Shown here in pieces: positions 1,042-63,181 of a stretch of DNA of 64,000 nucleotides (positions are counted from its first letter, which is position 1; every line of letters starts with the position of its first letter). The notes beneath the pieces were generated by a model. The model saw only the letters and a program-made list of their open reading frames with translations. It did no database searches and had not been told where the DNA came from. Both the position numbers and the translations under genes were made by a program. This DNA comes from an uncultured Acidimicrobiia bacterium (GTDB lineage Bacteria; Actinomycetota; Acidimicrobiia; Spongiisociales; Spongiisociaceae): the NCBI GenBank assembly GCA_964516495.1, contig CAZEZF010000002.1:1231-65230 (forward strand), in the 5' to 3' direction.

Positions 1042-2064
1042 ATGACCGGCCCTTCTGGAGGCGACTCCATGACCGCGATAACAACCACGGAGATGCATAC
1101 GGGAGGTGAGCCGGTTCGAATCGTCGAAACCGGTTATCCCCCCATTGCGGGTACGACGATACTCGACAAACGGCGTTACGTACGGGAACACCTAGACCAC
1201 CTCCGCACCACCATCATGCATGAACCGAGAGGTCACTACGACATGTACGGGGTGATCCCTGTCGAGCCCGACCTTCCGCAAGCGGATCTGGCGGTTCTGT
1301 TCATGCACAACGAGGGCTACTCCACGATGTGCGGCCACGCAGTCATAGCGTTTGGCAGGTATGCGGTGGATCGGGGACTGGTTCCTAGGAATGCGCCAGT
1401 CACCGAGATGGTGATCCAGTGTCCGTGCGGTCCGGTGACCGTACAGGTGGAGGTGAAAGACGGCCGGGCAGGCAGGGTCCGCTTTCGCAGCGTCAAAGCC
1501 TTCGCCGCGGCTCTTCAACATAAAGTTCATGTTAAACCTTATGGTTGGGTCACCTACGATATAGGGTATGGCGGAGCTTTCTATGCGGTCAGCGACGCCT
1601 CCCGATTCGGGCTGGAGGTAGGCGCCTCACGGGTGGAAGAGTTGGTCAGGGCTGCCAAGGCTTTGAGCGACGTCGTTAGGGAGGAAGGGGGATTGAGCCA
1701 CCCCGACAACCCTGAGTTGGCGGAACTCTACGGGTCGATCCTCACCGACGGCCGGGACGGAGAGGATGCGTCGGCCAACATCTGCGTCTTCGCCGATGCG
1801 CAGGTGGATCGTAGCCCGACCGGCTCGGGAGTAACCGCGCGAATGGCTATCCGCTATGCCCGCGGCCAGGTTTCTATCGGCGACGAGCGGACCTTCGAGA
1901 GCGTCGTGGGGTCGCGGATGACCGGAATGGTGGTAGCGGAAACAACCCTTGGTAGGTATCCGGCGGTCACGGTCGAGGTTGCTGGGAAGGCTTACTATAC
2001 GGGGAGGTCTTCATTCATCGTGGAGCCTGATGATCCGTTCGGGACAGGCTTTCTGGTTCGTTGA
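1042..2064 (+). CDS. Proline racemase family protein, Cys/Thr catalytic pair suggests trans-3-hydroxy-L-proline dehydratase type; start may be ATG at 1069
   Basis: MHTGGEP N-terminal motif; first catalytic motif MCGHA (Cys) and second SPTGSG (Thr instead of Cys), as in T3LHyp dehydratases. Confidence 0.7.
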   Translation: MTGPSGGDSMTAITTTEMHTGGEPVRIVETGYPPIAGTTILDKRRYVREHLDHLRTTIMHEPRGHYDMYGVIPVEPDLPQADLAVLFMHNEGYSTMCGHAVIAFGRYAVDRGLVPRNAPVTEMVIQCPCGPVTVQVEVKDGRAGRVRFRSVKAFAAALQHKVHVKPYGWVTYDIGYGGAFYAVSDASRFGLEVGASRVEELVRAAKALSDVVREEGGLSHPDNPELAELYGSILTDGRDGEDASANICVFADAQVDRSPTGSGVTARMAIRYARGQVSIGDERTFESVVGSRMTGMVVAETTLGRYPAVTVEVAGKAYYTGRSSFIVEPDDPFGTGFLVR

Positions 2065-2267
2065 CCCCGATTTTTCATGCAGGGGTTTGAATGGGTAACC
2101 GAGCGAGATGCAAAGAACTCTCTGACCTGCGACGATAGCTGATTGACGGCCTCTACTGGCCGGGGTATTACCTTTCACCCGAAAGGTGAACGCCGGGACG
2201 CCCCCATGCAAGTGGACTTGACGTGGCCTTTTCAGGTTCGGTGTGTCCGGGGCATGAAGAATTGGGG
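2065..2267 (+). mobile_element. MITE family A copy 1 (203 bp), flanked by TTGA target duplication (2061-2064 includes the upstream stop codon; 2268-2271)
   Basis: Terminal inverted repeats CCCCGATTTTTCATGC ... GCATGAAGAATTGGGG; about 85-90 percent identical to copies at 6915, 7271, 57605. Confidence 0.75.
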
Positions 2268-6345: not shown

Positions 6346-6849
6346 CTACGGCAAATCCCAAACCGTGGAGCTATCTCCGGACGCCGCCACAGCAAGGGAT
6401 CGAGCGGAGTGCAGTACCGTCCCCACCAGGACCAGCGCCAGGCCGGCGTTCACGATCATCTCCGTTAGGAGTGGAACCGATCCGATCAGTTCCGGAATGG
6501 TCGTGGCGGTTAGGTAGAGGATCGAGAATATGGCCCAGGTGACCAGGGCGGAGCAGACAAAGAAGACCTGCTTTGAAGTGCCGCTCGTCTGTCCGAGCCC
6601 CTTGTAGATCAGGGGAACCAGCAGCGCCACCAGAGCGAACCCGAAGAGTTGCGCCGAGTTACGGTCTCCGGAGACGAGGAAGAATGCGAAGCCGATTACC
6701 ACCGCGCTGCTCGATGCCCAACTACCCGAGAAGGACCAGCGCATCGGTCCAACCGTACCCTTCCACCGCCCCTTCGAGTCGCTGACCGCGGCAAAGGTCA
6801 CCACAAAGGCCACCAATCCGCTGATGGTGATCATCGAGTTCACGTTCAT
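6346..6849 (-). CDS. Hypothetical integral membrane protein (about 4-5 TM segments)
   Basis: Hydrophobic helices throughout (ITISGLVAFVVTFAAV..., ALVALLVPLIY..., LALVLVGTVL). Confidence 0.4.
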   Translation of the reverse strand: MNVNSMITISGLVAFVVTFAAVSDSKGRWKGTVGPMRWSFSGSWASSSAVVIGFAFFLVSGDRNSAQLFGFALVALLVPLIYKGLGQTSGTSKQVFFVCSALVTWAIFSILYLTATTIPELIGSVPLLTEMIVNAGLALVLVGTVLHSARSLAVAASGDSSTVWDLP

Positions 6850-6914
6850 GGATGGGCTTCCTTTCTAGCGTTTTCGAGGTACATCTTCACCGTCGTCGAA
6901 TACAAGAATACTAA

Positions 6915-7116
6915 CCCCGATTTTTCCATGCAGGGGTTTGAATGGGTAACCGAGAGAGATGCAAGGAACTCTCTGACCTGGGAAAATAGCTGCTTGGTGG
7001 CCTCTACTGGCCGGGGTGTTACCCTTCACCCGAAGGTGAACGCCGGGACGCCCCATGAAAGTTGGTTTGACGTGGCCCTTTTCGGGTTCGGTGTGTCTGG
7101 GGCATGAAGAATTGGG
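6915..7116 (+). mobile_element. MITE family A copy 2 (202 bp), CTAA target duplication (6911-6914 / 7117-7120)
   Basis: Same TIRs and internal sequence as copy 1; perfect 4-bp direct repeat flanks. Confidence 0.75.
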
Positions 7117-7270
7117 CTAAAGGGTTTGGCCTCTTGGTCTTGTTGTCGAGGTCCCGGGTCTACTCTCGAGTCGGGGGTATGTCACGCTCGTCCGTCGCGG
7201 TGAGGCCGTATCATTCATCGGATCGATTCGGCCTCATACCGAAGAGGGCAGCCCGATGGGTACGCAATAG

Positions 7271-7472
7271 CCCCAATTTTTATGTAGGGGTTTGGATGGG
7301 TAGCCGAGAGGGGGGCAAGGAACTCTCTGACCTAAGAAGATAGCTGTTTGGCGGCCTCACCTGGTCGAGGGGTTACCCTTCACCCGAAGGTGAACGCCGG
7401 GACGCCCCATGAAAGTTGGTTTGACGTGGCCCTTTTCGGGTTCCGGTGTGTCTGGGGCATGAAGAATCAGAG
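7271..7472 (+). mobile_element. MITE family A copy 3, 154 bp downstream of copy 2 (ATAG/CTAG flanks)
   Basis: Full-length alignment to copies 1, 2 and 5. Confidence 0.7.
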
Positions 7473-7488
7473 CTAGGAGAATCCTGAT

Positions 7489-9009
7489 ATGAGGTTAAGG
7501 GCGGTCGTTCTGGCCTCGCAGCGTGTTGCCGCCACCCGGTCACGTCGATCCAAGGTTGCGGTGCTGGCTGAACTGCTCTCGGCGGCCGATCCGGCCGAGA
7601 TCGAGGTAGTCGTGGGCTTCCTGTCGGGGGCGCCTCGCCAAGGTCGGGTGGGGATCGGCGCGGCTTCCTTGTGGGCGGTCGAGACCACGCCGGCGGATTC
7701 GCCCACCCTCGAAGTACTCGAGGTCGATCACTTCATCGAACGGATACCGACTATTACCGGTCGAGGGTCACAAGCGCGCCGTCGCCGGTTGTTAGAGGAT
7801 CTGCTGGGCAGCGCTACAAACACCGAGCAGGATTTCCTGCGCAGGTTACTGGTAGGGGAGTTGAGACAGGGAGCGCTCCGAGGACTCATGATGGACGGGG
7901 TGGCCGCCGCGTCGGGCCTTCCGGCTACCTTGATACGGCGGGCCACCATGCTGGGTGGGGACTTGGGCAGGGTGGCCTGCACCGCTCTCACTGAAGGCGA
8001 GGAAGCCTTGAGGCAGATGAGCATCCGGCCCCTCCGTCCGGTTCATCCGATGCTCGCTACCGCATCCGGTTCGGTGGCCGAAGCGTTGGACGGTCTCGAG
8101 GCAGCCTCGGTCGAATGGAAGCTGGACGGGGCCCGGATTCAGGTCCATCGAATAGGTGACCGGGTGGCGGTGTTCACACGGCGGCTGAACGAGGTCGGAT
8201 CTCGTATGCCTGTGGTGAGGTCGGTGGTGAACGCCCTACCGGTGACCGCCGTCGTTCTGGACGGGGAGGCCCTTACCGTCGACAGCAAGGGAACCCCGAG
8301 GCGTTTCGAACAGACAATGAGCCGCTTCGGTTCGCAGGAGGCCACCGACGATGCCCCGCTGATTCCCTTCTTCTTCGACATTCTCCATATCGATGGGCGG
8401 GATCTGATCGATCTTCCCCTCTCTGAGAGGATTGCGCTGCTCCAGCAGTTGGCGCCTGCCGAGTATCTGGCGCCCAGAATCATCACCGGGGAGGTAACCG
8501 AGGCTGAGAGGTTCTTCGCCATGGCCCGCCGCCGGCGACATGAAGGGATCATGGTGAAGGACCTCAACGCGACCTATGCGGCCGGTCGGCGAGGATCGGC
8601 CTGGCGAAAGGTCAAGGTCGCCCACCATCTTGATCTGGTGGTGCTCGCCGCCGAATGGGGTCACGGTCGCCGCAGGGGGTGGTTATCCAACCTGCATCTG
8701 GGAGCTCGAGACGCGGATCGAGGCGGGTTTGTGATGGTAGGGAAGACCTTCAAGGGGCTTACCGACAAGATGCTGGCCTGGCAAACTGAACGGTTTCTGG
8801 AACTCCAAACGGGTCGGGACCGCCATATCGTCTTCGTTCGTCCCGAAATGGTGGTAGAGGTGGCTTTCGACGGGGTTCTTCCCAGCCCTACCTACCCGGG
8901 TGGAGTGGCTCTTCGCTTTGCCAGAGTGAAACGTTTCCGTACCGACAAAAAACCCGACGAGGCCGACACCATCGAGGAGATCCGCCGGATCCTCGAAGGT
9001 CATACCTGA
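7489..9009 (+). CDS. ATP-dependent DNA ligase (LigB/LigC type)
   Basis: Adenylation motif WKLDGAR (KxDG), OB-fold region, 506 aa. Confidence 0.8.
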   Translation: MRLRAVVLASQRVAATRSRRSKVAVLAELLSAADPAEIEVVVGFLSGAPRQGRVGIGAASLWAVETTPADSPTLEVLEVDHFIERIPTITGRGSQARRRRLLEDLLGSATNTEQDFLRRLLVGELRQGALRGLMMDGVAAASGLPATLIRRATMLGGDLGRVACTALTEGEEALRQMSIRPLRPVHPMLATASGSVAEALDGLEAASVEWKLDGARIQVHRIGDRVAVFTRRLNEVGSRMPVVRSVVNALPVTAVVLDGEALTVDSKGTPRRFEQTMSRFGSQEATDDAPLIPFFFDILHIDGRDLIDLPLSERIALLQQLAPAEYLAPRIITGEVTEAERFFAMARRRRHEGIMVKDLNATYAAGRRGSAWRKVKVAHHLDLVVLAAEWGHGRRRGWLSNLHLGARDADRGGFVMVGKTFKGLTDKMLAWQTERFLELQTGRDRHIVFVRPEMVVEVAFDGVLPSPTYPGGVALRFARVKRFRTDKKPDEADTIEEIRRILEGHT

Positions 9010-27664: not shown

Positions 27665-27959
27665 ATGCTATGTTGTCTTGAGCGGACAACCTTGACTCTC
27701 GATGATGATGTAGCGGCGGCTCTCAGGGAACGGACCCGGCTCACCGAACAGACATTCAAGCAGGTCGTCAATGACACCTTGCGGCGAGGCCTTTCCCCGG
27801 CGCAACCGGAGGCGAAAGCGGGTTACCGTCGTCAGGGTCCACCACGGTGGATTCCTATCTGGAGTCGATCCATTACGCCTGAACCAACTCAACGATTCGC
27901 TTGAGGCCGCCGGGTTCGCCGGCTCACCACTTTCACGGGATGTCCCGACCTTAGGGTGA
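27665..27959 (+). pseudogene. vapB: VapB-type (RHH, RTTLTLDDD) antitoxin gene with a frameshift near 27828; its 3' end is overlapped by a MITE
   Basis: ERTTLTLDDDVAAALRERTRLTEQTFKQVVNDTLRRGL in one frame continues as VVRVHHGGFLSGVDPLRLNQLNDSLEAAG in the +1 frame (track ORFs 27665 and 27771). Confidence 0.6.
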
Positions 27960-28068
27960 TGGGGGCGCCCCGTCCAGACGAGGCCGTCACACAGCTATCT
28001 TCCCAGGTCATGTGGTTAATTTCACCTCGCTCGGCTACCCATCCAAACCCCTGCATGAAAAATTGGGG
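27935..28068 (-). mobile_element. MITE family A copy 6, diverged/partial, inserted at the vapB-vapC junction (TTAA at 28069-28072); left boundary approximate
   Basis: 28068 leftwards matches the first ~100 nt of other copies (ccccaatttttcatgcaggggtttggatgggtagccgag...); weaker similarity further left. Confidence 0.55.
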
Positions 28069-28085: not shown

Positions 28086-28403
28086 GTGGGGATTGCATGG
28101 ATCGTGGCGGCAGGGTTCGTGCGGTTACTCACCCACCCCAACGTTCTCAGTACCCCGGCGACACCGGAACACGCCGTTGACACCATGGCGGAGTGGTTCA
28201 TTTCGCCCGGCGTCATACCCCTGAACCCGGGAACGCGGCGCCTTACGATCTTCCGCCACATGCTTTCGGCCGCCGGAGTAGGCGGGAACCTTGTTACTGA
28301 CGCTCACATCGCTGCGCTCGCTATCAAGTATCAGGCCGAGGTCCACTCCAACGATCGCGATTTTATGCGCTTCCCCGGTTTGCGTTGGCGTAACCCTCTC
28401 TGA
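28086..28403 (+). pseudogene. vapC: VapC (PIN) toxin gene lacking its first ~35 codons (MxLVDANVLLYAV... missing)
   Basis: C-terminal two-thirds of PIN domain incl. GNLVTDAHIAALAIKYQAEVHSNDRDFMRFPGLRWRNPL; paralogue of 29151..29579. Confidence 0.65.
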
Positions 28404-28515
28404 TCTCCCCTCCGTCGGCGTTGTCTGACCTGATGCAGGCCGAAGGTGGACCAGTCGGCTTTGTGGGCCTACGTTGTCGGTTGTCTCCGAGATCGGTGAC
28501 GGACAGGATTCTTAC

Positions 28516-28875
28516 TTACAGGCGTACCGCGGGCAGTCGCTTTAGTTCTTCCCGCTGAGGATCAACCACGAAGCCCCCGGATTCGAGTGCGGTTACGGCC
28601 AGTAGTGGTTCTACACCTTCCTCGCCGAAGACCACCATGTTCGCTACAAATACACCTTCGAACTCCAGCACCGCCGCGCTGATGTCATAGGTGACGATCC
28701 TCCCATCGGCCGTCTCGTAGTCGCGGTTGGAGATAGGCGCCAGCCCGATCGACTCCAGGTACGATCTCGGCGCTACCGAGTCGAATGCGCCGGTGTCGAC
28801 CAGGAACCTACCGGTCCATGACCGGTCGAGATCAGCCGGATTCCGAACTGTCACATCAACATGGGTCATCCCCAC
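28516..28875 (-). CDS. Retropepsin-like (clan AA) aspartic protease, copy 1
   Basis: Catalytic VDTGAFDS (D-T-G-A) motif, 119 aa; about 80 percent identical to 31157..31516 with co-duplicated 5' and 3' flanks. Confidence 0.7.
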   Translation of the reverse strand: MGMTHVDVTVRNPADLDRSWTGRFLVDTGAFDSVAPRSYLESIGLAPISNRDYETADGRIVTYDISAAVLEFEGVFVANMVVFGEEGVEPLLAVTALESGGFVVDPQREELKRLPAVRL

Positions 28876-31100: not shown

Positions 31101-31156
31101 ACTCTCGTCCTTCCTATACAGTCTCCGAGTTGATTCGAGTCGGACCGGGGATCTAC

Positions 31157-31516
31157 CTACAAGCGCACCGCGGGGAGTCGGGTGAGTTCTTCCCTCCGGG
31201 GGTCTACTCGGAATCCACCGGATTCGAGTGCGGTGACGGCGAGGAGCGGTTCCACGCCCTCCTCGCCGAAAACCACGGTGTTTCCGACCAGGACTCCCTC
31301 GAACTCCAGTTCCGCCACGCCGATGGCATAGGTTACGGAACTTCCGTCCGCGAGTTCGTACTCACGGGTGGATCTGGGCTTGATTCCTATCGCCTCGAGA
31401 ACCGATCGCGGTATTACCGAGTCGTAGGCGCCGGTGTCCACCAGGAACCGGCCTGTCCATGACCGACCGAGATCAGCCGGATTCCGAACCGTCACATCAA
31501 CGTGAGTCATCCCCAC
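31157..31516 (-). CDS. Retropepsin-like (clan AA) aspartic protease, copy 2
   Basis: VDTGAYDS motif; 119 aa; duplicated with promoter/RBS region (31517-31595) and 3' flank. Confidence 0.7.
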   Translation of the reverse strand: MGMTHVDVTVRNPADLGRSWTGRFLVDTGAYDSVIPRSVLEAIGIKPRSTREYELADGSSVTYAIGVAELEFEGVLVGNTVVFGEEGVEPLLAVTALESGGFRVDPRREELTRLPAVRL

Positions 31517-31573: not shown

Positions 31574-34500
31574 TTACAAGGGCACGGAGGCGGGGCGGTT
31601 AGAGATGGTCGGTTCGACGGCCAGCCTTCTGCGCCACTCGACAATCTCTTCCTCATCGAAGTCGAGGGCCATCGCAGCGGCCCGGTCGATGATCCGGCGC
31701 GCCTGACATTCTTGACCTAGCGACAGGGGGAGCATCTCGAGGTCGGCGGCCTGCTCCCATGCCTCCGCGAGGTGTGACCAGGCAGAGTTGTCGGGTCTGG
31801 GTACTCCGACCTGCCGTAGCTGCGCCAACGACCACGATGGATACGTCAGTTTCTTCGTGCGGAGGTTGAGTAGCATGAGTCGGACGGGAGTGGAGTTCCA
31901 CCATGCCACCAACGCCTTGCCTTCCGGTTTCCCGGAGACCGCAACCGGGATCCATCCTGACCCGATGGACGGTGTCGGCGACCAGAGAGCCGTTAGACGC
32001 CCGCTGATAGTGTCGTAACGCTCGGTGACTAGAGTGTGACTGCGCATCTCCCAATACCGACGAGCTAGGTGTGACTTGTCGGCCTTGGGATAGCCTTGAT
32101 GGTCTGGCGTACCCGCCATCCGCCGGTGGATCTTGGCGGCGATTGACCAGAACAGGGGAACTGTCTCCGGGTCTACCTCAGCGGACTTACGATAGGTATC
32201 GCGTATTCCCCGCCCTGATGGGCCGATCCAGTGGTGAAGGCCGATCGGTTCCAAGTTTGGCGACAGGTTGATTAGGTAGGTTGCCTCGGCAAGTTGACCG
32301 TCGAACCACTGCACTGGCGCCCAGTCGCCGGCTTGGACGCGGTCGGCCGGCCAGAACGTGCGGCTGCCCCACTCGGTAGCGTTCCTTTGTGCGATGGCGT
32401 CTGCTGCTGCAAGGGTTTCTTCCGGGCTGGTTGGCATTCTGCGTAACGCGAAGAACTCGGTCTCGGGGGGGGGGTGTTGATTCGACGCGCTATCAGCAGG
32501 CACTCGTGTATGCCGGTGTTCTCGGAGAAGTTTATGCGTTTGGGGTCGTGCGAGGTGATGATCCGTTCGATGTGGAACCGCTTCGCCAAGAAAACACGCT
32601 CTTCCACACCCGACGACCCGATGCAACCTGTCGCCGGAACAACTTTCGCGAGCGTTCCCGCTGTGGTCCCATTCCTGTCAGATGGCGAATCCGTACCCTC
32701 TTCACCCGCGTACGGATCCCGGAGGAGGCGGTCGGCGAGGGGAGTGAAGAAGGTGCTGACGCTGTTGACGTTGACAACCTGTCCGGCTTCATGGTCAGAT
32801 TGGGATAGATGATCGCGCAGGCTCAACTCGTACTGCTGCATCTGTCTCACCTGTTCAGAGGTGTATTGGCGGCCTCGCTTCACGTTGTTGGTGAAAGGTG
32901 GGTTCATGATGACCAGGTCGAGGTTGCCGGTCGGTAGCTCGGTCTCCTCATCGCTCACCTGGGTAGCGCCAAGTCCCAGCCGGGTTGCCAGAGGACGTAC
33001 CAGGCTTGCCAACGAGTCCGCATCTTCGGCGGCGCCGAGAATCTCCAACGAACCGGCTTTGACCTCACCGTCCGGTTGCGGACCGTGTTTCAGGGTGAAT
33101 AAGTTTATCCGTCGGTAGTCAACCGTCGGGGCGCCCAAGGTCAGGTTGCAGGCGGCCATCTGCACGGCGTAGCGGTTGATGTCAAGGCCGTAGATCACGT
33201 TCTCGACCAACGCCTTGTGGAACCCGGCCATGTCGTCCTCGCTCATCTGACGAGCTTCTCGTACACGGGACTTCATCACTTGCAGGGCGGCCATGAGCAG
33301 CGTTCCGGTGCCGCAGGCCGGATCCATGATTCTCAGTCGATTTACCTGTTCGGTGTCGTTCCATTCAACAAAGTCCTCGCTGATGGCGAGCCGGGCCAGT
33401 AGTAGCGCCGAGATGTTGTTGGTGTAATACGAGCCGGTCGCAGCGGCGTTGGGCAGGATGCGGTGGTAGAGCGGTCCGGCATGGTCGTAACCCAACTCGC
33501 TGAGCGAGGTGGCCGTTCGGTTGGCGCACTCGGCGAGTATGCATAGGGCGTGGCTTACGAAGCGCCGCCGGGGTAGGGTGGCGAGAACTGCCACGGCGGG
33601 TTCGAACACCGGTTTGTAGTCCTGTTCCAGGATTTTCTCCCAGTCGCGGACCAACGCCTCGGCGGGGTACTCGTCGCCCGACACCCGGGCCAGGTCGTCC
33701 AGCCAACCCATGTGCGCCACATCGGCCAGCCTACGGTGTAATAGGCAGGCGTTGGCGACCAGGAGTGCGGCGATCTTGCAGATATCGCGCTCGTTCCGGT
33801 CAACGCTCAAGCCCATGGCGGTTGCCAGGTCGGTAGCCAGGTCTCCCTCCTTGAAGAGCCCGGCCGCTCGCCGTACCGCATGGGTGATCTCGTCGGCTAC
33901 CAGCAGACCAGGTGTTCCCAGACCGGAGGAGGCCACCACATGAGCGAAGATGCCGCGTCCGACCTCCTTGAGATCAAGCGTCAACTGATCCGGGATGTAG
34001 TCCTCTTCGGATGACGGGTCGTCTCCGGTCGGTTCCTGGACGGAGACGAAGCGAAGCGGGTCCTCCGCGAGACGCCCGTCGTGGGACTGAAGCGCCCGCA
34101 ATACCTGGCCGACGGCCTTGTAGCCCTGGCTGCCTTCAGAGAGCGCGGTGGTCAGGTCCTCGCCGGGGGAGATCGGGATCGGCACGATTACATACCCGAG
34201 CCGCTTGCCCTCGCTACGCCGCATAACCCGACCAACCGCCTGGACGATGTCCACCTGGCTGTCCCTCGGCTCCATAAAGACAATGGCGTTCAGCGACGGA
34301 ACGTCGACACCTTCGCTGAAGAGCTTCACGTTGCACAGAACCCGGGCGGTGTCGCCGTCGCCGGCTCGACGAAGCTTCCGAAGGGCCTGGTTGCGCTGGA
34401 AGGCGCTGTTGGCGCCGTCGAGATGTTTGGCGTCGATCTTCAAGGAGGACTCGGCGTCGCGTCGACCCCGGCGTACCCGGCGGGTAATGAGAGATCTGAG

Positions 34501-35985
34501 TTCGGGATGCGCCAGAGCTTCGGCGAAGAACTTGGAGCGTTTGATCGAGTTGGCAAAAGCGATGGTGCGGTGTAGTCGCCCCGGGCGCTCCAACGATGCG
34601 CCTTCCGCCACGCCGTTGATAGCCAGGGCGGTTCCCAACAGGCGGGTCGCTTCGGTGCTGGTGACGGTCAGGGGCTTTCCCCGCCCCGTGCTCAGCTGTT
34701 CGCCGAGGGAGACCAGGCGCCTCCACATGCCCTCAGGGACGTCCCGGTCGCGGACGCCGAGCACGATCACCCGGTAGTCGGAGAGCATCTCGTGGTTAAC
34801 GGCGTCTTTGAAGGACAGGAGGTCCAGTTCCGGTCCGTACACCTCCAAGTCGGACATGTCCACCGTCTCGATACCCCGGGCTTTGAGTGAACCGCGAGAC
34901 CTGGCCGTGTAGATACGCGGCGTGGCGGTCATATAGAGGCGTTTGGAAGCTGACAGCAGGTCATCGTGATGCACCGCCTGGAACCCGTTGAAGTCCTTGA
35001 TCTGTGAGCCGGCCCGATCCACGCCGGTGGTGCGATGCGCCTCGTCGCACAGCACCAGATCGAAGGAGGGGGTCTCGTGTTTCTGCTGGGCCTCGGTCAG
35101 GCGCCGGAGTGACTGGTAGGTGGAGAACACCACCCGAGTGTTGCTGGTTTCCGGTTTTGGGGCCATCAAATCGGCCAACTTCTTGGGATCGGAAGTGACC
35201 GCGCATTCGAGTTCGGAGAGCTTGATCTCGTTTCCTTCTCCACGACCTCCGGCGGAACGGTCCGAGCAGACGACCCGGCAGTCGAGAGGTCGGAGGGTGT
35301 GCCGTAGCCACTCCCGCCTGGCCTGCGAGACGAGGGCGATGCTCGGGGCGAGGAACAGGATTCGACCACCGTCGGGAACCACCTGCTCCGCTATCCGGAG
35401 TGCGGTGAACGTCTTGCCCGTGCCGCACGCCATGGTGAGGCGGCCCCGGTGATGGTATTGCAGACCCTTCACGACTTTGTCGATCGCCTCCTGCTGGCGC
35501 GGCCACGGTCGGCGTACCGGGCGACCGTCGCCCGGTACGGTGAGCGGATCGTTCTCATGCCGCAGGAAGTCGATCCGTCGAACGGGTGGCTCAGCCCCTT
35601 CGACAGCCGCCTCGGCTGCCTTTGTCCAATCACTGGTGGCGATAATCCAACGCATGGAGTAGACCGACTGCTGGGTGAAACCAAGGAAAGAGTCGATTGC
35701 CGGCTTCGAGACGCGGGCCTTCTCGGAGTAGCACTTGCATTGAATGGCGATCCATCCGTCGCTTCGATGCCGGGCTACCAGGTCGACTCCCCAGTCGCGA
35801 CCGTCGTGTCCGGTCAACTCCTCCCGTTCCGGCCAGTCCGCCCATCGGTGGACCTTCTCGATCTCGTATTCAGGGTTTGCCAAGAGAACCTGGCTGACAA
35901 GGTTCTCGAACCATCGACCCTTCTCACTCTCGTCACGGCTTTCCCGTCGGATCCGATCCAGCGCCTCGCCAATCGTCGAAACCAT
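31574..35985 (-). pseudogene. Type ISP-like single-polypeptide restriction-modification enzyme (Mrr-cat nuclease - SF2 helicase-like ATPase - gamma-class N6-adenine MTase - TRD), reading frame broken at a C10 homopolymer (phase-variable, pseudogene or sequencing error)
   Basis: Mrr-like D...QCK (GVDLVAR...IAIQCKCY); Walker A MACGTGKT and DEAH box LVLCDEAHR; MTase motif I MDPACGTGTLL and motif IV VIMNPPFTNN; 1237-aa frame degenerates into low complexity after INTPPP while the overlapping 350-aa frame (HPPPETEFFALRRMPTSPEE...) continues as a plausible TRD. Confidence 0.7.
32465..32474. repeat. G10 (C10 on coding strand) homopolymer tract at the frameshift point of the RM gene
   Basis: tctcGGGGGGGGGGtgttga; both overlapping frames translate it as PPP. 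Confidence 0.9.
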
Positions 35986-36184: not shown

Positions 36185-36345
36185 GAGTTCCCGAAAGGGG
36201 TGACTGGCTACTTGAATGTTTCCGCTAGATTGTCCTCCTACGTCTGCGAAAGACCGATGGAAGGTAGGGCTGTGGTTCATTTTGATGCGTCAGCGAGCCT
36301 TCGTTGCTCCTCCGGCGATTACATCTCCACTCGGGGATCCATCAC
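36185..36345 (+). repeat. Repeat B1: partial duplicate of promoter and 5' end of the 37569 gene (contains a 54-codon remnant ORF 36257..36421)
   Basis: About 80 percent identity to 37497..37650 incl. ttgaatgtttccgctagattgtcctcctacgtctgcgaa and ATGGAAGGTAGG start. Confidence 0.7.
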
Positions 36346-36481: not shown

Positions 36482-37450
36482 ATGCCTCCCGCGGTCCGGA
36501 TGGGCTTCCAGGTATGGGCACAGCATGTGTCCTGGGCGGAACTGATGGGCGCGGCCACATCGATAGAGGGCCGCGGCTTCGACAGCCTGTGGAGCAACGA
36601 TCACTTCTTTCCGATCGCAGGCTATGAACTCGACGTCAACCAGCGCCTGGAAGGTCCGATCTTCGAGGGATGGACGGTCCTGTCCGGTTTCGTCGCCCAT
36701 ACCAACGCCGTCCGGGTGGGATGTATGGTCTCAGCGGCGGGTTTTCGCAACCCCGGCTTGCTGGTGAAGATGGCAACGAGTCTGGATCATGCGTCGGGTG
36801 GCCGCCTGGTGTTGGGTATCGGCGCCGGATGGTACGAACGGGATCACATAGCGTTCGGGCTCGATCACCCGACAGTCGGAGAGCGTCTCGATCGATTGGA
36901 TGAGACGGTCGTGGCTATCAGAAGGTTGCTCGACGGCGAGACGGTGTCGATGGAGGGTAGATGGGTTCGGATGGTGAAAGCGCGCAACGATCCCCCTCCG
37001 CTTCAGAAGAACATGCCGTTGCTGGTCGGAGGCAGCGGCGAGCGGCGTAGTCTACCGTTAGCGGCTCGGTTCGCCGACTGGTGGAACGGTGAGGGGACCC
37101 CTGAGGAGATCGCCCGCAAGAACGTGCTCCTTGATCGGATGACCGAAGCTGCCGGGAGACGTCCGGCCGACCTCATCAGGACAGTGGGGTTACCCAATCC
37201 GCTAATCCGCAGTTCCCGGGCCGAAGCGGCGGAGGTCGCGGCCGCAATCCTGGCGAGACATGGCATGCCCGCCGGACAGGCGTGTGCTGCGGCCGTCAGG
37301 TCACCCTTGGTCGGGCCCTCGGATCAGGTCGCCGCCTATCTCCGCCGGTACGCGGAAGTCGGCGTAGCCGAAGTGGTCTTCGACTGGCCCTCTCCCTTCG
37401 ATGTGGAAACCCTTGACGCACTGGCGATCCTTCGCCGGGAAATGGGTTGA
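36482..37450 (+). CDS. LLM-class flavin/F420-dependent oxidoreductase
   Basis: FDSLWSNDHFF..., LVLGIGAGW motifs of luciferase-like monooxygenase family. Confidence 0.65.
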   Translation: MPPAVRMGFQVWAQHVSWAELMGAATSIEGRGFDSLWSNDHFFPIAGYELDVNQRLEGPIFEGWTVLSGFVAHTNAVRVGCMVSAAGFRNPGLLVKMATSLDHASGGRLVLGIGAGWYERDHIAFGLDHPTVGERLDRLDETVVAIRRLLDGETVSMEGRWVRMVKARNDPPPLQKNMPLLVGGSGERRSLPLAARFADWWNGEGTPEEIARKNVLLDRMTEAAGRRPADLIRTVGLPNPLIRSSRAEAAEVAAAILARHGMPAGQACAAAVRSPLVGPSDQVAAYLRRYAEVGVAEVVFDWPSPFDVETLDALAILRREMG

Positions 37451-37496
37451 GAGAGAGAGCCGGCCACGTTCGATGCGAGTGGTTTGCCGCGCCTCG

Positions 37497-37650
37497 GAGG
37501 TCCGAAAGGGGTTGGGTGGCTGCTTGAATGTTTCCGCTAGATTGTCCTCCTACGTCTGCGAAGCACCGATGGAAGGTAGGACCGTGGTTTCTCCGATGTA
37601 TCAGGGCGCCTCTGTTGCTCCACTGGCAATTACCGTTCCACTCGGGATCT
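37497..37650 (+). repeat. Repeat B2 (promoter/5' region of hypothetical gene), direct repeat partner of B1
   Basis: See B1. Confidence 0.7.
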
Positions 37651-38327
37651 CTATCCAGGAGTTCTCGACCATCATGGTTGCCATCGGCGGTCTCTACCGA
37701 GAGGTTGGTAAGGCCCTGGGCACTGAGGAGGTAACCGGGCTTCAGGTGAGCAGACATCGGGAGGGAAGCCTGGTGTTGGAGTGTGATCCGCTTCTTAAGG
37801 ATGGTTCCGACCCCTCCGCTGCCAATAGTGTCACCGATGTGCTCCTACAAGAATTGGAAGCGCTTGCGATAGGCAGCAGGTCCGCGAGCTTCAGTCAAGC
37901 CGCACTCAAGCATGCCGCCAAGTTGACCGGAGCTTTCACGGACGAGGGTTCTCAGGTGGTTGTATCAAGCGGTAGCCGATCCGTCTCGTTCGGCGTGGAC
38001 TTCCGCTCCACAGTTCTGGGCTTGGTCAACCGCACGACGGTCAGCTGGGGATCGGTTGAGGGGACGCTGCAAATGATCTCGCTGAGGGGACCTTCACGGT
38101 TCAACCTACACGAAATGCTCACTGACGAGAAGGTGGAGTGCAGATTCGATGCAGACATGCTTGAAACCGCGAGGGCGTCGTTGGGGTATCGAGTTGTTGT
38201 TTCCGGCGAGATCCACAAACGAGGGGGCAAGTTTGAGTACGTCAAGGTAGAGCGCCTGCACGCTCGTCCTCCATCTGACCAACTCCCGGGCTTTGCGGAG
38301 ATCCGCGGGCTGTTTGCTGACGCCTGA
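37569..38327 (+). CDS. Hypothetical protein (253 aa from ATG 37569; track ORF starts 37401)
   Basis: No recognisable domain; start inferred from the conserved ATGGAAGGTAGG shared with repeat B1. Confidence 0.35.
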   Translation: MEGRTVVSPMYQGASVAPLAITVPLGISIQEFSTIMVAIGGLYREVGKALGTEEVTGLQVSRHREGSLVLECDPLLKDGSDPSAANSVTDVLLQELEALAIGSRSASFSQAALKHAAKLTGAFTDEGSQVVVSSGSRSVSFGVDFRSTVLGLVNRTTVSWGSVEGTLQMISLRGPSRFNLHEMLTDEKVECRFDADMLETARASLGYRVVVSGEIHKRGGKFEYVKVERLHARPPSDQLPGFAEIRGLFADA

Positions 38328-46150: not shown

Positions 46151-47161
46151 TCATGCCGCCGGGTTGAAAACCTCGATTATCTCCTCGTAGTTCTCGGTGA
46201 TGGGGAGCAGAGCCGGGTAGATGTTCGGCCGGATCGAGTAGGCGTTCACCTGCCGTAGGCACTGCTCCGGAGTCCCGGCCGCGGTGAGAGATCGGACGAC
46301 CTCGGCCGGAACGAGGGGCATGGCCGCCTCGATCCCTCCCTCCGAAGGGGGCCAGCCACCCATGGCGCGGCGCACGCTGTCCAGCAGATCCTGGTCGACT
46401 CCGCTCGCCCGAGCGATGTGAGGTTGCTGACCCAGGTACATGGTGGTCATGCGGGTGGCGACGGACAGCGCCTTCTCCTCATTCTCATCCATGGCTATGA
46501 CGATGGTCTGGGGAAGGTCCAGATCATGCAACTTCCGGTCGGCGGCTCGGGCACCCCGTTCGATATGGCGGAGGGCGTCGGCGAGGTAGGTGAGGGATGT
46601 GAAGCCGTTGAGCATCACCCCGTCGGCGACTTCGCCGGATAGGGCCAGCATTTGCGGTCCGGTTGCCCCCACGTAGATCGGGACCTGTTTAGGAAGGTGA
46701 GCCACCCCGTGCCCGAGATCGAGCCGCAGGTCCCGGACCGTCACCAACTCACCCTCATAGGTGACCGTTTCGAGTGCCAGGAGCCGACGGGTGACCTCGA
46801 TGTATTCCCGCATCTGGCGGATCGGCCGACGGCGGTTGATTCCCTGCTTCCACGCCAACGGATCCCAGTACGCTCCGAGCCCGAGCAGCATGCGGTGCGG
46901 CGCCATCTCGTCAAGGGTGGCGAAGGTGAGCGACATCAATGAAGCGGGTCTGGTCCACGAGTTCACGACCCCTGTCCCGAGCTTGATCGTGGATGTAGCA
47001 TAGGCCATGGCGCCCAAGACAGAAATGGCGTCGCGAGCGGTACGGGTCTCGCACACCCACACCGATTCGTAACCGAGCGCCTCCATCCGCGCCGCCAGAC
47101 TCACCTGCCGTCGAGGATCCGGTCGATCCAGGAAACACATGCCTACCCGCCGACTGGTCAT
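46151..47161 (-). CDS. LLM-class flavin/F420-dependent oxidoreductase
   Basis: Luciferase-like family pattern (ALGYESVWVCE..., LLGLGAYW). Confidence 0.6.
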   Translation of the reverse strand: MTSRRVGMCFLDRPDPRRQVSLAARMEALGYESVWVCETRTARDAISVLGAMAYATSTIKLGTGVVNSWTRPASLMSLTFATLDEMAPHRMLLGLGAYWDPLAWKQGINRRRPIRQMREYIEVTRRLLALETVTYEGELVTVRDLRLDLGHGVAHLPKQVPIYVGATGPQMLALSGEVADGVMLNGFTSLTYLADALRHIERGARAADRKLHDLDLPQTIVIAMDENEEKALSVATRMTTMYLGQQPHIARASGVDQDLLDSVRRAMGGWPPSEGGIEAAMPLVPAEVVRSLTAAGTPEQCLRQVNAYSIRPNIYPALLPITENYEEIIEVFNPAA

Positions 47162-47592
47162 CCGGGTATCCTCCCAGGAGAGTGTCGAAAAAGACGGGGG
47201 TGGGTCCACCGCCTGCTGACCAGGGAGTTTATCATCGAACTTCGGGCCGGCAGGAGGTTTTCAAGTACCTTCCTGTGTTGTCCTGAATCACTGTTTATTT
47301 TGTCGTTGTGGTCGGTTGCGTGGTTAGGGGACGGGTTTTTGTCCTAACCATGTTGCATACCGATAGGTAACTGCGATCACCAAGCGGCCCGTTTGGGTAC
47401 CGGCCGGGCCGGGATCATGTTGAACGTACCTGACCCTAGGTAGGGGGTATGGGGGGACGCGTTTCGGCGCTGAGGCGGCGGCGGTTGGGGGTGGTACCCA
47501 CTAGGGGAGTCAACCAGATAATAAGGATGTTTCTCGCGGCCTTTGGTCCTCAGGGGCCGAACAGTTCTGGCGGCAAGCACGTTATTCACCAA

Positions 47593-47717
47593 CCCCGATG
47601 ATTCTTCATGCCCCCGTCACGCCGAACCCGAAAAGGCCAAGTCAAACCCACTTTCTTGGTCGTCCCGGCGTTGTAACTCGTTCGTACCCATTCAAACCCC
47701 TGCATGAAAAATCGGGG
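47593..47717 (-). mobile_element. MITE family A copy 4, internally deleted derivative (about 125 bp)
   Basis: Both TIRs present, central ~80 bp missing; CCAA/TCAA flanks. Confidence 0.6.
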
Positions 47718-53806: not shown

Positions 53807-53909
53807 AGGAGGGTGCCGGGAAACCCCCGGCTTGGCCCGACATCCGATGGTAAACTCCCTGGTCAGCGGACGGAGGGCCAATCTAATCACCCGTTTTCAG
53901 CACCCTCCT
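53807..53909 (-). repeat. Repeat family C copy 1: about 100-nt structured element closed by GGAGGGUGC/GCACCCUCC pairing, starting at the stop codon of the deaminase gene
   Basis: About 80 percent identical to 63083..63181; internal hairpins (ccggggguuucccgg etc.). Confidence 0.55.
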
Positions 53910-54900
53910 AGGAACTCCAGTATTCCTGCTGGATGGTGGAGGATTCGGCGACCAGGTGGGGTCCCCTCACCTCTATATGGCGCTGACCGGTACCCAGGAT
54001 CTCGCGGCAACCTACACCGCGCATGGTCGGGTTGAGGGGGTTGGCGCCGGTGTATTCCAACAGGTGGTGTTCGCTCATGCCGTACACCAGCCGGTTGAGG
54101 CCGCCCCAGTACATGGATCCGCTGCACATGGCGCAGGGTTCGCAGCTGGTGTAGAGAGTGGCGTCCGCGATCTGTTCGGAAGTGAGTTGGTCCACCGCCA
54201 TTCGCATCAGGTTGGTCTCGGCGTGGTTGAGAGGGCTTTTGCCGGTGATGTCGGAGTTCTCCGCCTCAAGGAGGATGTTTCCATCCGGGTCGGCCAGCAG
54301 CGCCCCGAAAGGCAGGTTTCCGTTGGCCACGGAGCGTTCCGCGACCTTGATCGCCCTCCGCAGCAGTCGCTCATCCATCTCGCTCAGGTCGCCGGTTACC
54401 GGTCGGGGGCCGCCTTCGGCGAAGAAATCGATGTGTACCGCCGACGCCTCCTCGATAAGGTGTGGTCCGCTCACCTCTATATGGCGCTGACCGCTGTCGA
54501 AGATGTTGCGACATCCCACGCCCCGCATCGTGGCCGTGCCGGGATCGCCTCCGGTTATTTCGAGAAGGTCCAACTCGCTCATGGCATAGACCATGCGGTT
54601 GAGCCCGCCCCAGTACATGGCGCCCGAGCACATGGCGCAGGGTTCGCAGCTGGTGTAAAGGGTGGCCTCGGCGATCTGTTCCGGGGTGAGGGTGGTAACC
54701 GCCAGGTTCATGAGGTTGGTCTCCGCATGGTTGAGCGTGTTGCGCCCGGTTACCCCGGTGTTCTCCGCCTCGAGCAGGATGTTTCCGTCACGGTCGGCCA
54801 TGATCGCCCCAAAGGGCATGTTCCCGTTGGATACCGATCTGGCCGAAACCTCGATCGCCTTTCGCAGGAGCCGTTCGTCATGTGAGCTGAGTACTGTCAT
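53908..54900 (-). CDS. Tandem-domain nucleoside/nucleotide deaminase (two CDA-fold TadA/guanine-deaminase-like domains)
   Basis: HAETNLM ... CEPCAMCSG zinc motifs present twice; the two halves are about 75 percent identical (504-bp internal tandem repeat). Confidence 0.7.
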   Translation of the reverse strand: MTVLSSHDERLLRKAIEVSARSVSNGNMPFGAIMADRDGNILLEAENTGVTGRNTLNHAETNLMNLAVTTLTPEQIAEATLYTSCEPCAMCSGAMYWGGLNRMVYAMSELDLLEITGGDPGTATMRGVGCRNIFDSGQRHIEVSGPHLIEEASAVHIDFFAEGGPRPVTGDLSEMDERLLRRAIKVAERSVANGNLPFGALLADPDGNILLEAENSDITGKSPLNHAETNLMRMAVDQLTSEQIADATLYTSCEPCAMCSGSMYWGGLNRLVYGMSEHHLLEYTGANPLNPTMRGVGCREILGTGQRHIEVRGPHLVAESSTIQQEYWSS

Positions 54901-56482: not shown

Positions 56483-57286
56483 TTATGGGGCTTGACCCGC
56501 TGTTGGTGTCTGGTTCAGGTGCATCTTGCGCAGGGAGTGGCGAACCAGATCCTGGGCGGACCTGGCGCTGATGTCCAGGAATCCATCCGGCCAGCCTTCC
56601 GAAAGGCCGCCGTACTCGTTTATCTCCGACTTCCGGTAAGTCGTGATGCCGTCACTCTTCTCCGCGAATAGGAGGGTGACCAGTTCCCTGGTCGTATCGG
56701 TCTCATCTGACGCCACCTGGGTCCGCAGTTGATTGACAAGATGGTCGCTGTGGGTCTCCACGATTATCTGGCGGCCCGCTCGAACGAAAGCCAGGAGGAA
56801 GTCCGCAAGTCGCTTCTGTAGCGCCGGGTGAAGGTGTAACTCCGGCTGCTCGAGTATCAACAGATCCGCCGGAATACTCAACAAGCACTGCAAGATGACC
56901 GGCAGCACCTGACTAACTCCTGTACCGACCGCCGAAAGGTAGACGGGCCTTGGTGCATCGGATACGTGGACGCTCAGAGCCCGCTGTCCATAGCGATCCC
57001 GCACCTCCACGTCCACCGCTTCCGCTATACCGAACCACCGGAGCCACTGGTCCATTGCATCCCGAAACGGAACCAGATCCTCATGACCGGTGGGTAGCGG
57101 GACGTTAACCCACCGATCACTTGATCCATCCAGCACTATGGCCGCGTTCTCGCCGCGGGTACCGACATGTGTATTTTCCAGCCGAGTCATAGACGCAGGT
57201 CCTTCCTGTGGAGATACCCGCACTGGACCTAGATAGTGAAGCCTCGAATCAAGTAGTCCGTCGGACGCAGCCTTCATCCATAACAA
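56483..57286 (-). pseudogene. SMC/ABC-like AAA ATPase (AAA_21 + DUF3696-like) lacking its N-terminal Walker A region
   Basis: LHYLGP, Walker B LLILEQPELHLHP, H-loop ETHSDHL present; P-loop absent; MITE copy 5 lies immediately upstream. Confidence 0.5.
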
Positions 57287-57604
57287 TGGGTGGTCCTCCT
57301 CCGAGGCATTTTGTTTGTCCTAAACGTCGATCAACCAGCATCCGGCGTCTTCGGCAACCCGGATCATGCTGTCTCTGGTTCTCTCATACACATAGGAGGC
57401 GGAGACCGTTTGATGGTCTGGGCGTATCTTTAGTTCTCCGGCCTCGGTCTTTCGACCCGACTCCAACCCATCACCCGTTGCTTCGACACCGAAGTTCCCT
57501 GGAAGCGTGAGCGTAGTGAGCGCCCCTTCTATCAGAGGCCAGAAGGACTCGTAGTGGGCATGACCTAGTGTCCCGAATGTCTCGACCCAGTTGTCGACCC
57601 TTAA

Positions 57605-57805
57605 CCCTGATTCTTCATGCCCCAGACACACCGACCTCAAAAAGGCCATGTCAAGCGCAGCACCGTGGGGCGTCCCGGCGTTCACCTCAGGGTGAAGGGT
57701 AACACCCCAGCCAGGCGGGGCCACCAAGCGGCTATCTTCCCAGGTCAGAGAGTTTATTGCATCTTTCTCGGCTACCCAATCAAACCCCTGCATGAAAAAT
57801 TGGGG
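57605..57805 (-). mobile_element. MITE family A copy 5 (201 bp), perfect TTAA target duplication (57601-57604 / 57806-57809)
   Basis: Full-length, both TIRs. Confidence 0.8.
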
Positions 57806-57970
57806 TTAATGCCCCGACAGCCTCCAATTCCTTCACATCATCCAAGGTGAGCATCACTTCGTAGCTGGTTGCCAGGTTCAATAACCGTTGCAATACGGTC
57901 CCGAGGTTACCGCAGGAGTTAAGAAGTTCCAGAGCCAAGCAAACCGGGATCGAGTTGGAGGGGCGGTCCC

Positions 57971-58489
57971 TCATAGAGAAGAGCGGAGGTACAGTCGGCA
58001 GCCGGGCTTCTGACAGATGCGCCCTCTTGGGATTTGAAGTCCCCATCTGGGGTCGAATCGGCCGCGGAGCGGTAAACCGGTGGAAATGTCCTCCCAGTCA
58101 CATGGCTGGCCGATCGCGACATCACCGACTGCTTCCAGGCTCTCAGGAGCAATCGCGCCGGTCAGGTTTCTCATCTGGTCTTCCCAGATGACGGAGCGCG
58201 TATCAGTCTGGACGACGACGGTGTAAGGCAAGGTGGAGCTTTCTGGTGGGATGGTGAGGTCGAAGGCTGTCGCGAGTTCGGTGTTGGAGTGAACGAGCAT
58301 GATCTCGGCAAACCTCCGGAGGTGGTGCGAGTCCAGCCGGAGGACAAGGACCATGCGGTCGAATGTGAACGACGACCCGGTCATGTGAACTGTTCGTAGC
58401 TGTCCAGGTTGTACGTCGATTTGAACAGGCGGTAACCTGCGGCGGGTATGCCCGGCCAATGCGGCTTTGATCGCTCGGGGTACGCTCAT
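57971..58489 (-). CDS. Hypothetical protein (extent uncertain)
   Basis: Long ORF without recognisable domain in a decayed region. Confidence 0.2.
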   Translation of the reverse strand: MSVPRAIKAALAGHTRRRLPPVQIDVQPGQLRTVHMTGSSFTFDRMVLVLRLDSHHLRRFAEIMLVHSNTELATAFDLTIPPESSTLPYTVVVQTDTRSVIWEDQMRNLTGAIAPESLEAVGDVAIGQPCDWEDISTGLPLRGRFDPRWGLQIPRGRICQKPGCRLYLRSSL

Positions 58490-58904
58490 GTGTCTGTACT
58501 TCCGCCAAGCGATGAACTGATCGCGGCAAGCAACTCCTCCATCACCGCAACGTGGTGGCTTGCGTCGAAGCGGCCCAACAGGTCCGTCGCCAATCGACGG
58601 AGAACCCTCCGTTTCCGCTGTGCAACCCAGGGCCTTTGATCGTCCAAGACGTGCGGCCACCTCCCCGTCTGCGATACCCTGGCTTTTGCTCATAATGATC
58701 CACTGCTCAGGCTCACCGAGGTCTAGCGCGAAAACCTCCACCGCTGTTTCATCTCGACATCTTCCAGTGCTGCCCCGGGAGTCGGCTTGTCCGACGGGTA
58801 GTCCCTCTCAGTATTTGAAGGAACGTTGGAAGCCACGATGTCAACAACTTCTCGAGAATCCGCGCCAAGTCCCGTTCGCTTATGGTGCTGACCTCGTCTC
58901 TTGT

Positions 58905-63082: not shown

Positions 63083-63181
63083 AGGAGGGTACTGAGAAAC
63101 CCCCGGTTGGCCCGACATCCGATAAACTCCCTGTTCAGCGGGCGGAGGCCGACCCGCCCCCGTCTTTTTCAGCACCCTCCT
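63083..63181 (-). repeat. Repeat family C copy 2, starting at the stop codon of the Rieske oxygenase gene
   Basis: See copy 1. Confidence 0.55.

Follow-up and report, generated by a model that had tools for sequence, protein, structure and literature searches.

[quoted passage not shown] They are small and non-coding, carry short terminal inverted repeats, occur in multiple, mostly intergenic copies and are mobilised in trans, duplicating 2-4 bp of a CTAG-like target centred on TA. The eukaryotic relatives of the IS5 family are the PIF/Harbinger transposons with their Tourist MITEs. A second set of MITEs derives from IS630/Tc1-mariner elements, which insert at the TA of CTAG, and includes RUP in Streptococcus pneumoniae, Correia in Neisseria, Nezha in cyanobacteria and Stowaway in plants. 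These are 100-200 bp long, insert at TA, often in CTAG, and have end repeats that can form a long stem. PiggyBac elements use TTAA as target and have CCC...GGG ends. The omega RNAs of TnpB and IscB and the bridge RNAs of IS110 are, like the element described below, ~200 nt long. For IS427-group members of the IS5 family, duplications of 2 bp and in one case of 4 bp were published (PMC3281130, Table 2), and an actinobacterial IS5-group element duplicates CTAG (PMC9241763).

We analysed a 64-kb stretch of DNA from an uncultured Acidimicrobiia bacterium (in the following called the window), in which a sequence-only reading had proposed an undescribed, non-autonomous element with terminal inverted repeats. 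Empty sites, a split coding sequence and ~55 further copies bear this out. The copies very probably represent a non-autonomous cut-and-paste DNA transposon, a non-coding MITE of ~200 bp. It combines the properties of this class: a non-coding length below ~500 bp, terminal inverted repeats, a target duplication, presence/absence polymorphism and many dispersed copies. Compared by description with the known families, it is a new MITE family of an ordinary kind, spread in uncultured sponge-associated actinobacteria. Its points of interest are the density of six copies in 64 kb, the spread in sponge symbionts and an architecture that is constant across old subfamilies; the sole point unusual for transposon biology is the asymmetric pattern of its junctions.

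Copies in the window and their termini

The copies were established by repeat detection, alignment and direct reading of the six places. All six were found by alignment where the sequence-only reading had put them: four full-length copies of 201-203 bp, one internally deleted and one truncated copy (Table 1). The truncated copy c6, previously given as ~27935-28068, is real and runs slightly longer. The internal deletion of c4, recognised before, amounts to ~84 nt, and the right repeat of this copy contains a 3-nt GAT duplication. A sensitive profile search yielded no seventh copy in the window. Among each other, the window copies are 85-90% identical.

The element is bounded by 5'-CCCCGATTYTTCATG ... 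CATGAAKAATCRGGG-3'. Its terminal inverted repeat, CCCCRATTYTTCATGC, is 16 bp long and imperfect, as had been described, with 14 of 16 nt complementary. Allowing up to two mismatches, CCCCRATTYTTCATGC matched eight times in the window, compared with an expectation of 0.14, and none of 100 shuffled windows gave eight matches. The element is without coding capacity; the open reading frames (ORFs) that overlap them are either artefacts or fused to neighbouring genes. Perfect 4-bp flanks had been reported for three copies: TTGA at c1 and TTAA at c5 hold, while the CTAA of c2 is perfect only when its last G is counted as missing.

Table 1 Features of the window. Profile positions refer to the family profile; flanks are given as left / right where two are known.
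Feature	Position	Strand	Description	Flanks
c1	2065-2267	+	full length, 203 bp	TTGA 2061-2064 / TTGA 2268-2271
c2	6915-7117 (end 7116/7)	+	full length	CTAA / (C)TAA
c3	7271-7472	+	full length	ATAG / CTAG
c6	~27920-28068	-	profile positions 1-160 only, right end absent	TTAA 28069-28072 (left end)
c4	47593-47717	-	profile positions 1-41 and 125-199; ~84 internal nt deleted	TTGA / TTGG
c5	57605-57805	-	full length, 201 bp	TTAA 57601-57604 and TTAA 57806-57809
Proline-racemase-family gene	1042-2064		stop codon in c1 flank
ORF (167 aa)	6346-6849	-	upstream of c2
Interval with c2 and c3	6850-7488		two copies and 154-bp spacer
ATP-dependent DNA ligase gene	7489-9009	+	downstream of c3
PIN-like ORF	28086-28403		downstream of c6
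Direct repeats, 300 nt	28491-28790; 31132-31431		72% identical
Retropepsin-like ORFs	28516-28875; 31157-31516	-	aspartyl-protease type
Fusion gene (1237 aa)	32272-35985	-	nuclease, helicase and methyltransferase domains
Direct repeats, 93 nt	36185-36277; 37497-37589		87% identical
Luciferase-like monooxygenase gene	36482-37450		downstream of first 93-nt repeat
ORF without Pfam domain	37401-38327		at second 93-nt repeat
Luciferase-like gene	46151-47209	-	beside c4
Second MITE family, related arms	47176-47213
Second MITE family, copies	53808-53908; 63084-63180		~99 bp
Tandem deaminase gene	53908-54900	-	two domains
Repeats within deaminase gene	53949-54248; 54453-54752		300 nt, 74% identical
Decayed two-gene locus	56483-58741		contains c5

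Genomic context of the copies

The left flank of c1 includes the native TGA stop codon of a proline-racemase-family gene. That the duplication at c1 holds this stop codon had been noted before, and the same codon ends the orthologues in the related genomes L003 and L005. The racemase ORF had no exact match among recorded proteins, probably owing to its start codon. The copies c2 and c3 lie in tandem, 154 bp apart as previously stated, within a divergent intergenic region next to an ATP-dependent DNA ligase gene, whose ATG follows the right end of c3 at a distance of 16 bp. In the Logan short-read data of this organism (reads SRR22586461), contig L002 begins within c3, which suggests that the repeat interrupts this assembly.

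Between the 167-aa gene and the ligase gene, the window contains only these two copies and an unrelated 154-bp spacer. At the same interval, L003 (8770-10000) contains a 74-aa ORF (48 aa in L005) and a gene for a 199-aa SAM-methyltransferase. To see if c2 and c3 bracket a deletion of the methyltransferase gene, we compared the 154-bp spacer with the L003 and L005 loci; it showed no similarity to them, which speaks neither for nor against such a deletion.

The internally deleted copy c4 lies between a luciferase-like gene and a class-III aminotransferase gene on the forward strand. For c6, a position inside a vapBC operon had been claimed. There are antitoxin- and toxin-like matches on its two sides, all of them below the Pfam cut-offs: the peptide encoded upstream is weakly RHH/VapB-like (RHH_1, E 0.036; VapB_antitoxin, E 0.094), and the PIN-like ORF downstream is without its N-terminal third and matches the C-terminal half of PIN only (E 0.001).

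Several other repeats and genes were recorded in this part of the window. Two direct repeats of 300 nt extend over retropepsin-like aspartyl-protease ORFs near PIN-domain and AAA_14/DUF4143 genes and form a duplicated small gene module. Further along, a single gene encodes a protein of 1237 aa in which an Mrr-type nuclease, a ResIII/DEAD helicase and an N6-adenine methyltransferase domain are fused and which resembles a single-chain restriction-modification enzyme. A luciferase-like monooxygenase gene is preceded by the first of two 93-nt direct repeats, which lie at a distance of 1312 bp and have no Rfam match; the second is inside or upstream of the following ORF. This pair is possibly a duplicated leader or regulatory region.

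Distribution and anatomy of the family

Scanning JGI metagenomes by pattern gave 57 loci, in which copies were then located by nhmmer. These loci contain ~55 full-length copies, 44 of them distinct, which fall into seven subfamilies and measure ~200 bp in every one (196-218 bp overall). Most of the 57 loci come from MKWU01, the metagenome of the sponge Aplysina aerophoba (PMC5649159, PMC5099237), a study that described two Acidimicrobiia bins of 3.9-4.1 Mb with 61.6-64.3% G+C (PMC5649159, PMC5099237). The G+C content is 61.4% in the window and 59-68% in the metagenome loci, and some of the latter have genes in common with the window that are 56-84% identical.

The nearest relatives of the window organism are L003 and L005, contigs of 4.0-4.1 Mb from ENA assemblies, which are syntenic with 1-20 kb of the window and encode ligases 81% identical to the one next to c3. 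The named matches at lower identity belong to metagenome-assembled genomes (MAGs) of Acidimicrobiia and Actinomycetota. Judged from the best named protein matches and from the source of the related contigs, the host is probably an Acidimicrobiia member living with sponges. The family is a marker of, and a practical nuisance in, one sponge-associated actinobacterial lineage. A 202-bp copy gave no match in the PLSDB plasmids, and the element gave none in IMG/VR. Among the matches listed for a 21-nt internal pattern in the genome collection there was one chance match, in an Acinetobacter MAG. Neither the element nor its end sequences were mentioned anywhere in the published literature that we searched.

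Between subfamilies, mean column identity is 56-65%. The blocks common to all of them are both end repeats, GGGGTTTG, CTGACC(W)GG, the palindrome TCACC-N4-5-GGTGA in the centre, GTGGTTGA.GTGGC and GGTGTG. The constant length of ~200 bp and the kept internal blocks hint at a constraint beyond the end repeats; a simpler reading of the shared blocks would be that transposition requires them. The gagagag...ctctctg stem, which had been taken as conserved, is confined to the subfamily of the window.

Evidence of mobility

The element has moved, as two filled/empty pairs of sites, a gene split by c5 and recent multiplication in one sponge metagenome demonstrate. The first empty site lies between the racemase gene and a THAP4-like gene, where L005 reads ...gggcCTAGcggtcg... 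and L003 reads ...ggcATAG[204-bp element]CTAGcggtcg.... The ligases of L003 and L005 fall into one 90% cluster, marking the two genomes as close relatives. The second pair was found upstream of a luciferase-like gene: the window reads ...ccggTTAGcctgggg..., and L003 and L005 have a copy in common, TTAG[element]CTAGcctgggg. An automatic search of the related loci gave no more empty sites.

Within the window, c5 sits inside a coding sequence and splits its frame. When c5 and one TTAA are removed, the frame is restored (...LEAVGALRVDNWVETFG... / ...DDVKELEAVGALRVDNWVETFG...) and aligns without gaps to residues 158-297 of an intact homologue of 297 aa (P0131, in L065) with 54% identity. At the equivalent site, the DNA of this homologue reads gcaCTGAgg. 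Besides the c5 insertion, the host gene has two frameshifts, so the insertion sits in a pseudogene.

The host gene of c5, whose function is not known, and a following ATPase gene form a decayed two-gene locus that corresponds to L065 3744-6589. The ATPase (AAA_15/AAA_21, AbiEii/OLD-like) is shortened to 267 aa, compared with 646 aa in L065. The locus resembles a defence-type system that is dead.

One subfamily in the Aplysina aerophoba metagenome comprises ~20 distinct copies that are 95-99% identical to each other, and this identity indicates recent activity. The element thereby marks recent genome change, in the split defence-like gene, in polymorphic intergenic regions and in the A. aerophoba burst.

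Target sites and asymmetric junctions

Junctions were counted for 37 distinct insertions, with c4 left out because of its deletion. TA is central in 35 of the 37, and the central dinucleotide is duplicated in 34, being TA in all of these except c1 (TG); c4, outside this set, has a TG centre too. The three bases beside the left end recur at the right end in 32 insertions, and all four bases recur in 17. The left-end triplet is TAG in 27 cases, TAA in nine and TAT in one. The target is therefore YTAR, centred on TA (CTAG, TTAG and TTAA, rarely TTGA). A 4-bp duplication with the consensus YTRA had been proposed: the duplication is real, the consensus becomes YTAR, and three bases (32/37) are repeated far more regularly than four (17/37).

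The commonest left/right pairs are CTAG/CTAG (10), TTAG/CTAG (8) and TTAA/TTAA (4). The two ends are not equivalent. TTAG...CTAG was observed eight times and the reverse, CTAG...TTAG, never, and the tetramer is palindromic at the right end in 29 of 37 insertions, compared with 18 at the left. Mixed pairs are present in copies that are 97-99% identical and were thus made at insertion, not by later mutation. Among such near-identical copies, the base beside TA is G in some and A in others and agrees with the far flank, behaving like a base that comes from the target.

The best single description of the junction is a 3-bp TAR duplication with an extra pyrimidine at the right end. We found no symmetric model with 2, 3 or 4 bp that predicts the observed counts, nor one in which donor flanks are carried over. 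Other origins of the asymmetry were considered and rejected: the copies are too similar for later mutation, and recombination between copies would act symmetrically, as would the deamination of CTAG when methylated.

In the window and the related loci, the observed frequency of CTAG, TTAG, CTAA and TTAA is just 0.16-0.40 of what base composition predicts, and many existing CTAG sites are MITE flanks. The target tetranucleotides carry stop codons on one strand or on both. Together with their 3-5-fold depletion, this helps to explain why insertions are mostly found in intergenic regions or exactly on stops. Examples of the latter are c1 on the TGA of the racemase gene and the L003 copy on the TAG of the THAP4-like gene; insertion inside a gene, as in the case of c5, is only occasional.

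Candidate sources of the transposase

For transposition, a DDE-type transposase whose gene lies elsewhere in the genome would bind both end repeats. The enzyme would excise the element and integrate it at a TA-centred tetranucleotide, with CTAG used most, followed by TTAG, then TTAA, and TTGA only rarely. When the staggered cut in the target is repaired, 2-4 bp would be duplicated, with the 3-bp TAR beside the left end as the best fit. We infer the type of this transposase (IS5 family, IS427 or IS5 group, or IS630 family) as well as its chemistry.

In line with the sequence-only reading, which had reported no cognate transposase in the window, no transposase domain was detected in window ORFs of at least 200 aa. 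No autonomous element with the same ends was present in the window, in four related-genome loci or in the 57 metagenome loci, ~650 kb in total. The pattern matches without a full copy behind them proved to be solo ends, nested insertions or contig ends, and pairs of end repeats 320-4000 bp apart were chance matches. TA-flanked inverted repeats at distances of 650-3200 bp turned out to be two copies of a second MITE family around ordinary genes (L061). All-against-all clustering of the ORFs in the related loci gave no multi-copy protein, an ORF beside a half copy in L058 had no Pfam domain, and the family profile had no nhmmer match in L006 or L007. When the IS families were compared by description, no known IS could be matched to the end sequence CCCCGATT....

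An IS5-family transposase of the IS427 or IS5 group is plausible as the source, though short of probable. This family makes duplications of 2-4 bp at CTAG-like sites. In the present element the duplication measures 2-4 bp around TA, with the target consensus YTAR, and the published duplications of IS427-group (2 bp, one 4 bp) and actinobacterial IS5-group elements (CTAG) fit. The TG-centred duplications of c1 and c4 also suit a relaxed target rule better than a strict TA. However, no IS5-family gene was found in any related locus examined, and the junctions of the present element, unlike those of IS5-derived MITEs, are asymmetric (NTAG left, CTAG right). IS5-family ends, moreover, typically start with GG or GA rather than with CCCC.

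Slightly less plausible, but still a serious candidate, is a transposase of the IS630/Tc1-mariner type acting at the TA of CTAG, which would duplicate TA alone and leave the base beside it as the tip of the element. The TA-type central dinucleotide is duplicated in nearly all insertions (34/37), IS630 transposases are very abundant in the lineage, and L006 carries an IS630 element flanked by cTAg. In the same genomes, the second MITE family of ~99 bp shows a clean TA duplication in CTAG, and a tandem pair in L017 shares a junction, TTAG, that fits element-borne tips. A duplication restricted to TA was, however, not what we observed: the next base is duplicated too in 32 of 37 insertions and, unlike in the second family, varies between G and A among copies of 97-99% identity. 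In addition, c1 and c4 in the window duplicate TG instead of TA, and the ends of the co-resident IS630 element (GTGTCCCGAGTC / GTGTCCTGAATC) are unrelated to those of the MITE.

It is likewise conceivable, without being probable, that the transposase belongs to neither of these families. We consider it improbable that the enzyme has an unusual, end-asymmetric chemistry or that the interior has a function of its own. Such a reading could rest on the target-derived NTAR at the left end, the nearly always palindromic CTAG or TTAA at the right and the conserved interior. One possibility would be a piggyBac/IS1380-like or undescribed enzyme that carries or re-templates the flanking base, and the interior could be a binding site for a host factor or regulator.

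A prokaryotic piggyBac/IS1380-like enzyme carrying flanking nucleotides over on excision, which would yield mixed junctions, is very improbable. The CCCC...GGGG ends, recalling the termini of that group, and the perfect TTAA...TTAA duplications in a minority of insertions (c5, L047, L040, L014) are compatible with it, as are the mixed junctions in copies too similar for later mutation. Symmetric carry-over, however, predicts CTAG...TTAG as often as TTAG...CTAG, at odds with the zero and eight cases observed, and it predicts TTAA...CTAA, which never occurred. The main targets here are CTAG and TTAG instead of TTAA, and no such transposase was present in the loci examined.

Folding of the element

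The copies had also been suggested to be transcribed as structured RNAs. That they are genes for structured non-coding RNAs, or act through a functional RNA or single-stranded DNA fold with the inverted repeats as closing stem, we regard as highly improbable. The constant length of ~200 bp and the internal blocks conserved across subfamilies would suit such a role, and so would the near-invariant central hairpin TCACC-N4-5-GGTGA. RNAalifold on 24 sequences gave a consensus of -49.9 kcal/mol with 84.9% of cells paired, compared with 37-50% for slid partners. This consensus was rejected as over-fitted because it was derived from the same sequences and failed cross-validation. G-U pairs exceed A-C pairs in it by 195 to 43; the way in which the structure was selected and the G+T richness of the strand account for this excess.

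The other tests argue against a functional fold. RNAalifold on 34 sequences returned three pairs, the folding energy of single copies was no better than that of shuffled sequences (z -0.93 and -0.73), and pairs changed on both sides numbered 17, against a shuffled expectation of 16.0. Internal pairs derived from one subfamily hold in 35-58% of the cells of other subfamilies, compared with 22-57% in slid controls, on both strands. The pairing of the end repeats does transfer between subfamilies, at 77-96%, and this difference between ends and interior would be expected of ends that serve as binding sites for protein. The structure common to the subfamilies consists only of the stem of the terminal repeats and the central hairpin. 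Rfam covariance models gave no match at gathering score in the window and only a tRNA in four copy-carrying loci, and a search of the c2-c3 region gave no promoter-like site. The copies also have target duplications and empty sites, and one lies inside a gene. Compared with omega and bridge RNAs, the element is without an Rfam match or a conserved internal fold, has a target of only 3-4 nt, and its copies stand alone, not beside the genes of such systems. A palindrome-associated element of the IS200/IS605 type was dismissed because terminal inverted repeats are present and the target is duplicated.

Co-resident mobile elements

Several further mobile elements share these genomes with the MITE. 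At L005 5229-6557, a TnpB element (OrfB_IS605 / Cas12f-like) with a 13-nt inverted repeat lies between a PMSR gene and a MITE copy (6718-6921). It is absent from the orthologous site in the closely related L003 and therefore represents a strain-level polymorphism. L007 contains an IS110-family element.

The IS630-family IS at L006 5647-6822 encodes DDE_3 and HTH domains, has the ends GTGTCCCGAGTC and is flanked by cTAg; the same end sequence also abuts a MITE copy in L009/L028. When its transposase was used as query, the best 120 of 8000 scored candidates were all at least 71% identical, several of them named Acidimicrobiales, which indicates that this type of IS630 is very widespread in the lineage. 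Since the search returned only close relatives, it was uninformative on diverged members.

The second, unrelated MITE family is ~99 bp long, with the ends GGAGGGTGCTGAGCA...TGYTCAGCACCCTCC and a clean TA duplication that usually lies inside CTAG. We counted ~35 copies across the window and the related loci examined. One of these (L042 7313-7420) is nested in a main-family copy, and others lie directly next to such copies. The ends of both this family and the L006 IS630 element are unrelated to those of the main family. These genomes thus harbour at least three types of element aiming at CTAG-like sites, which are themselves strongly depleted.

On the minus strand of the window, a further gene encodes a protein with two tandem cytidine/deoxycytidylate deaminase domains, and a 300-nt repeat is found within this gene.
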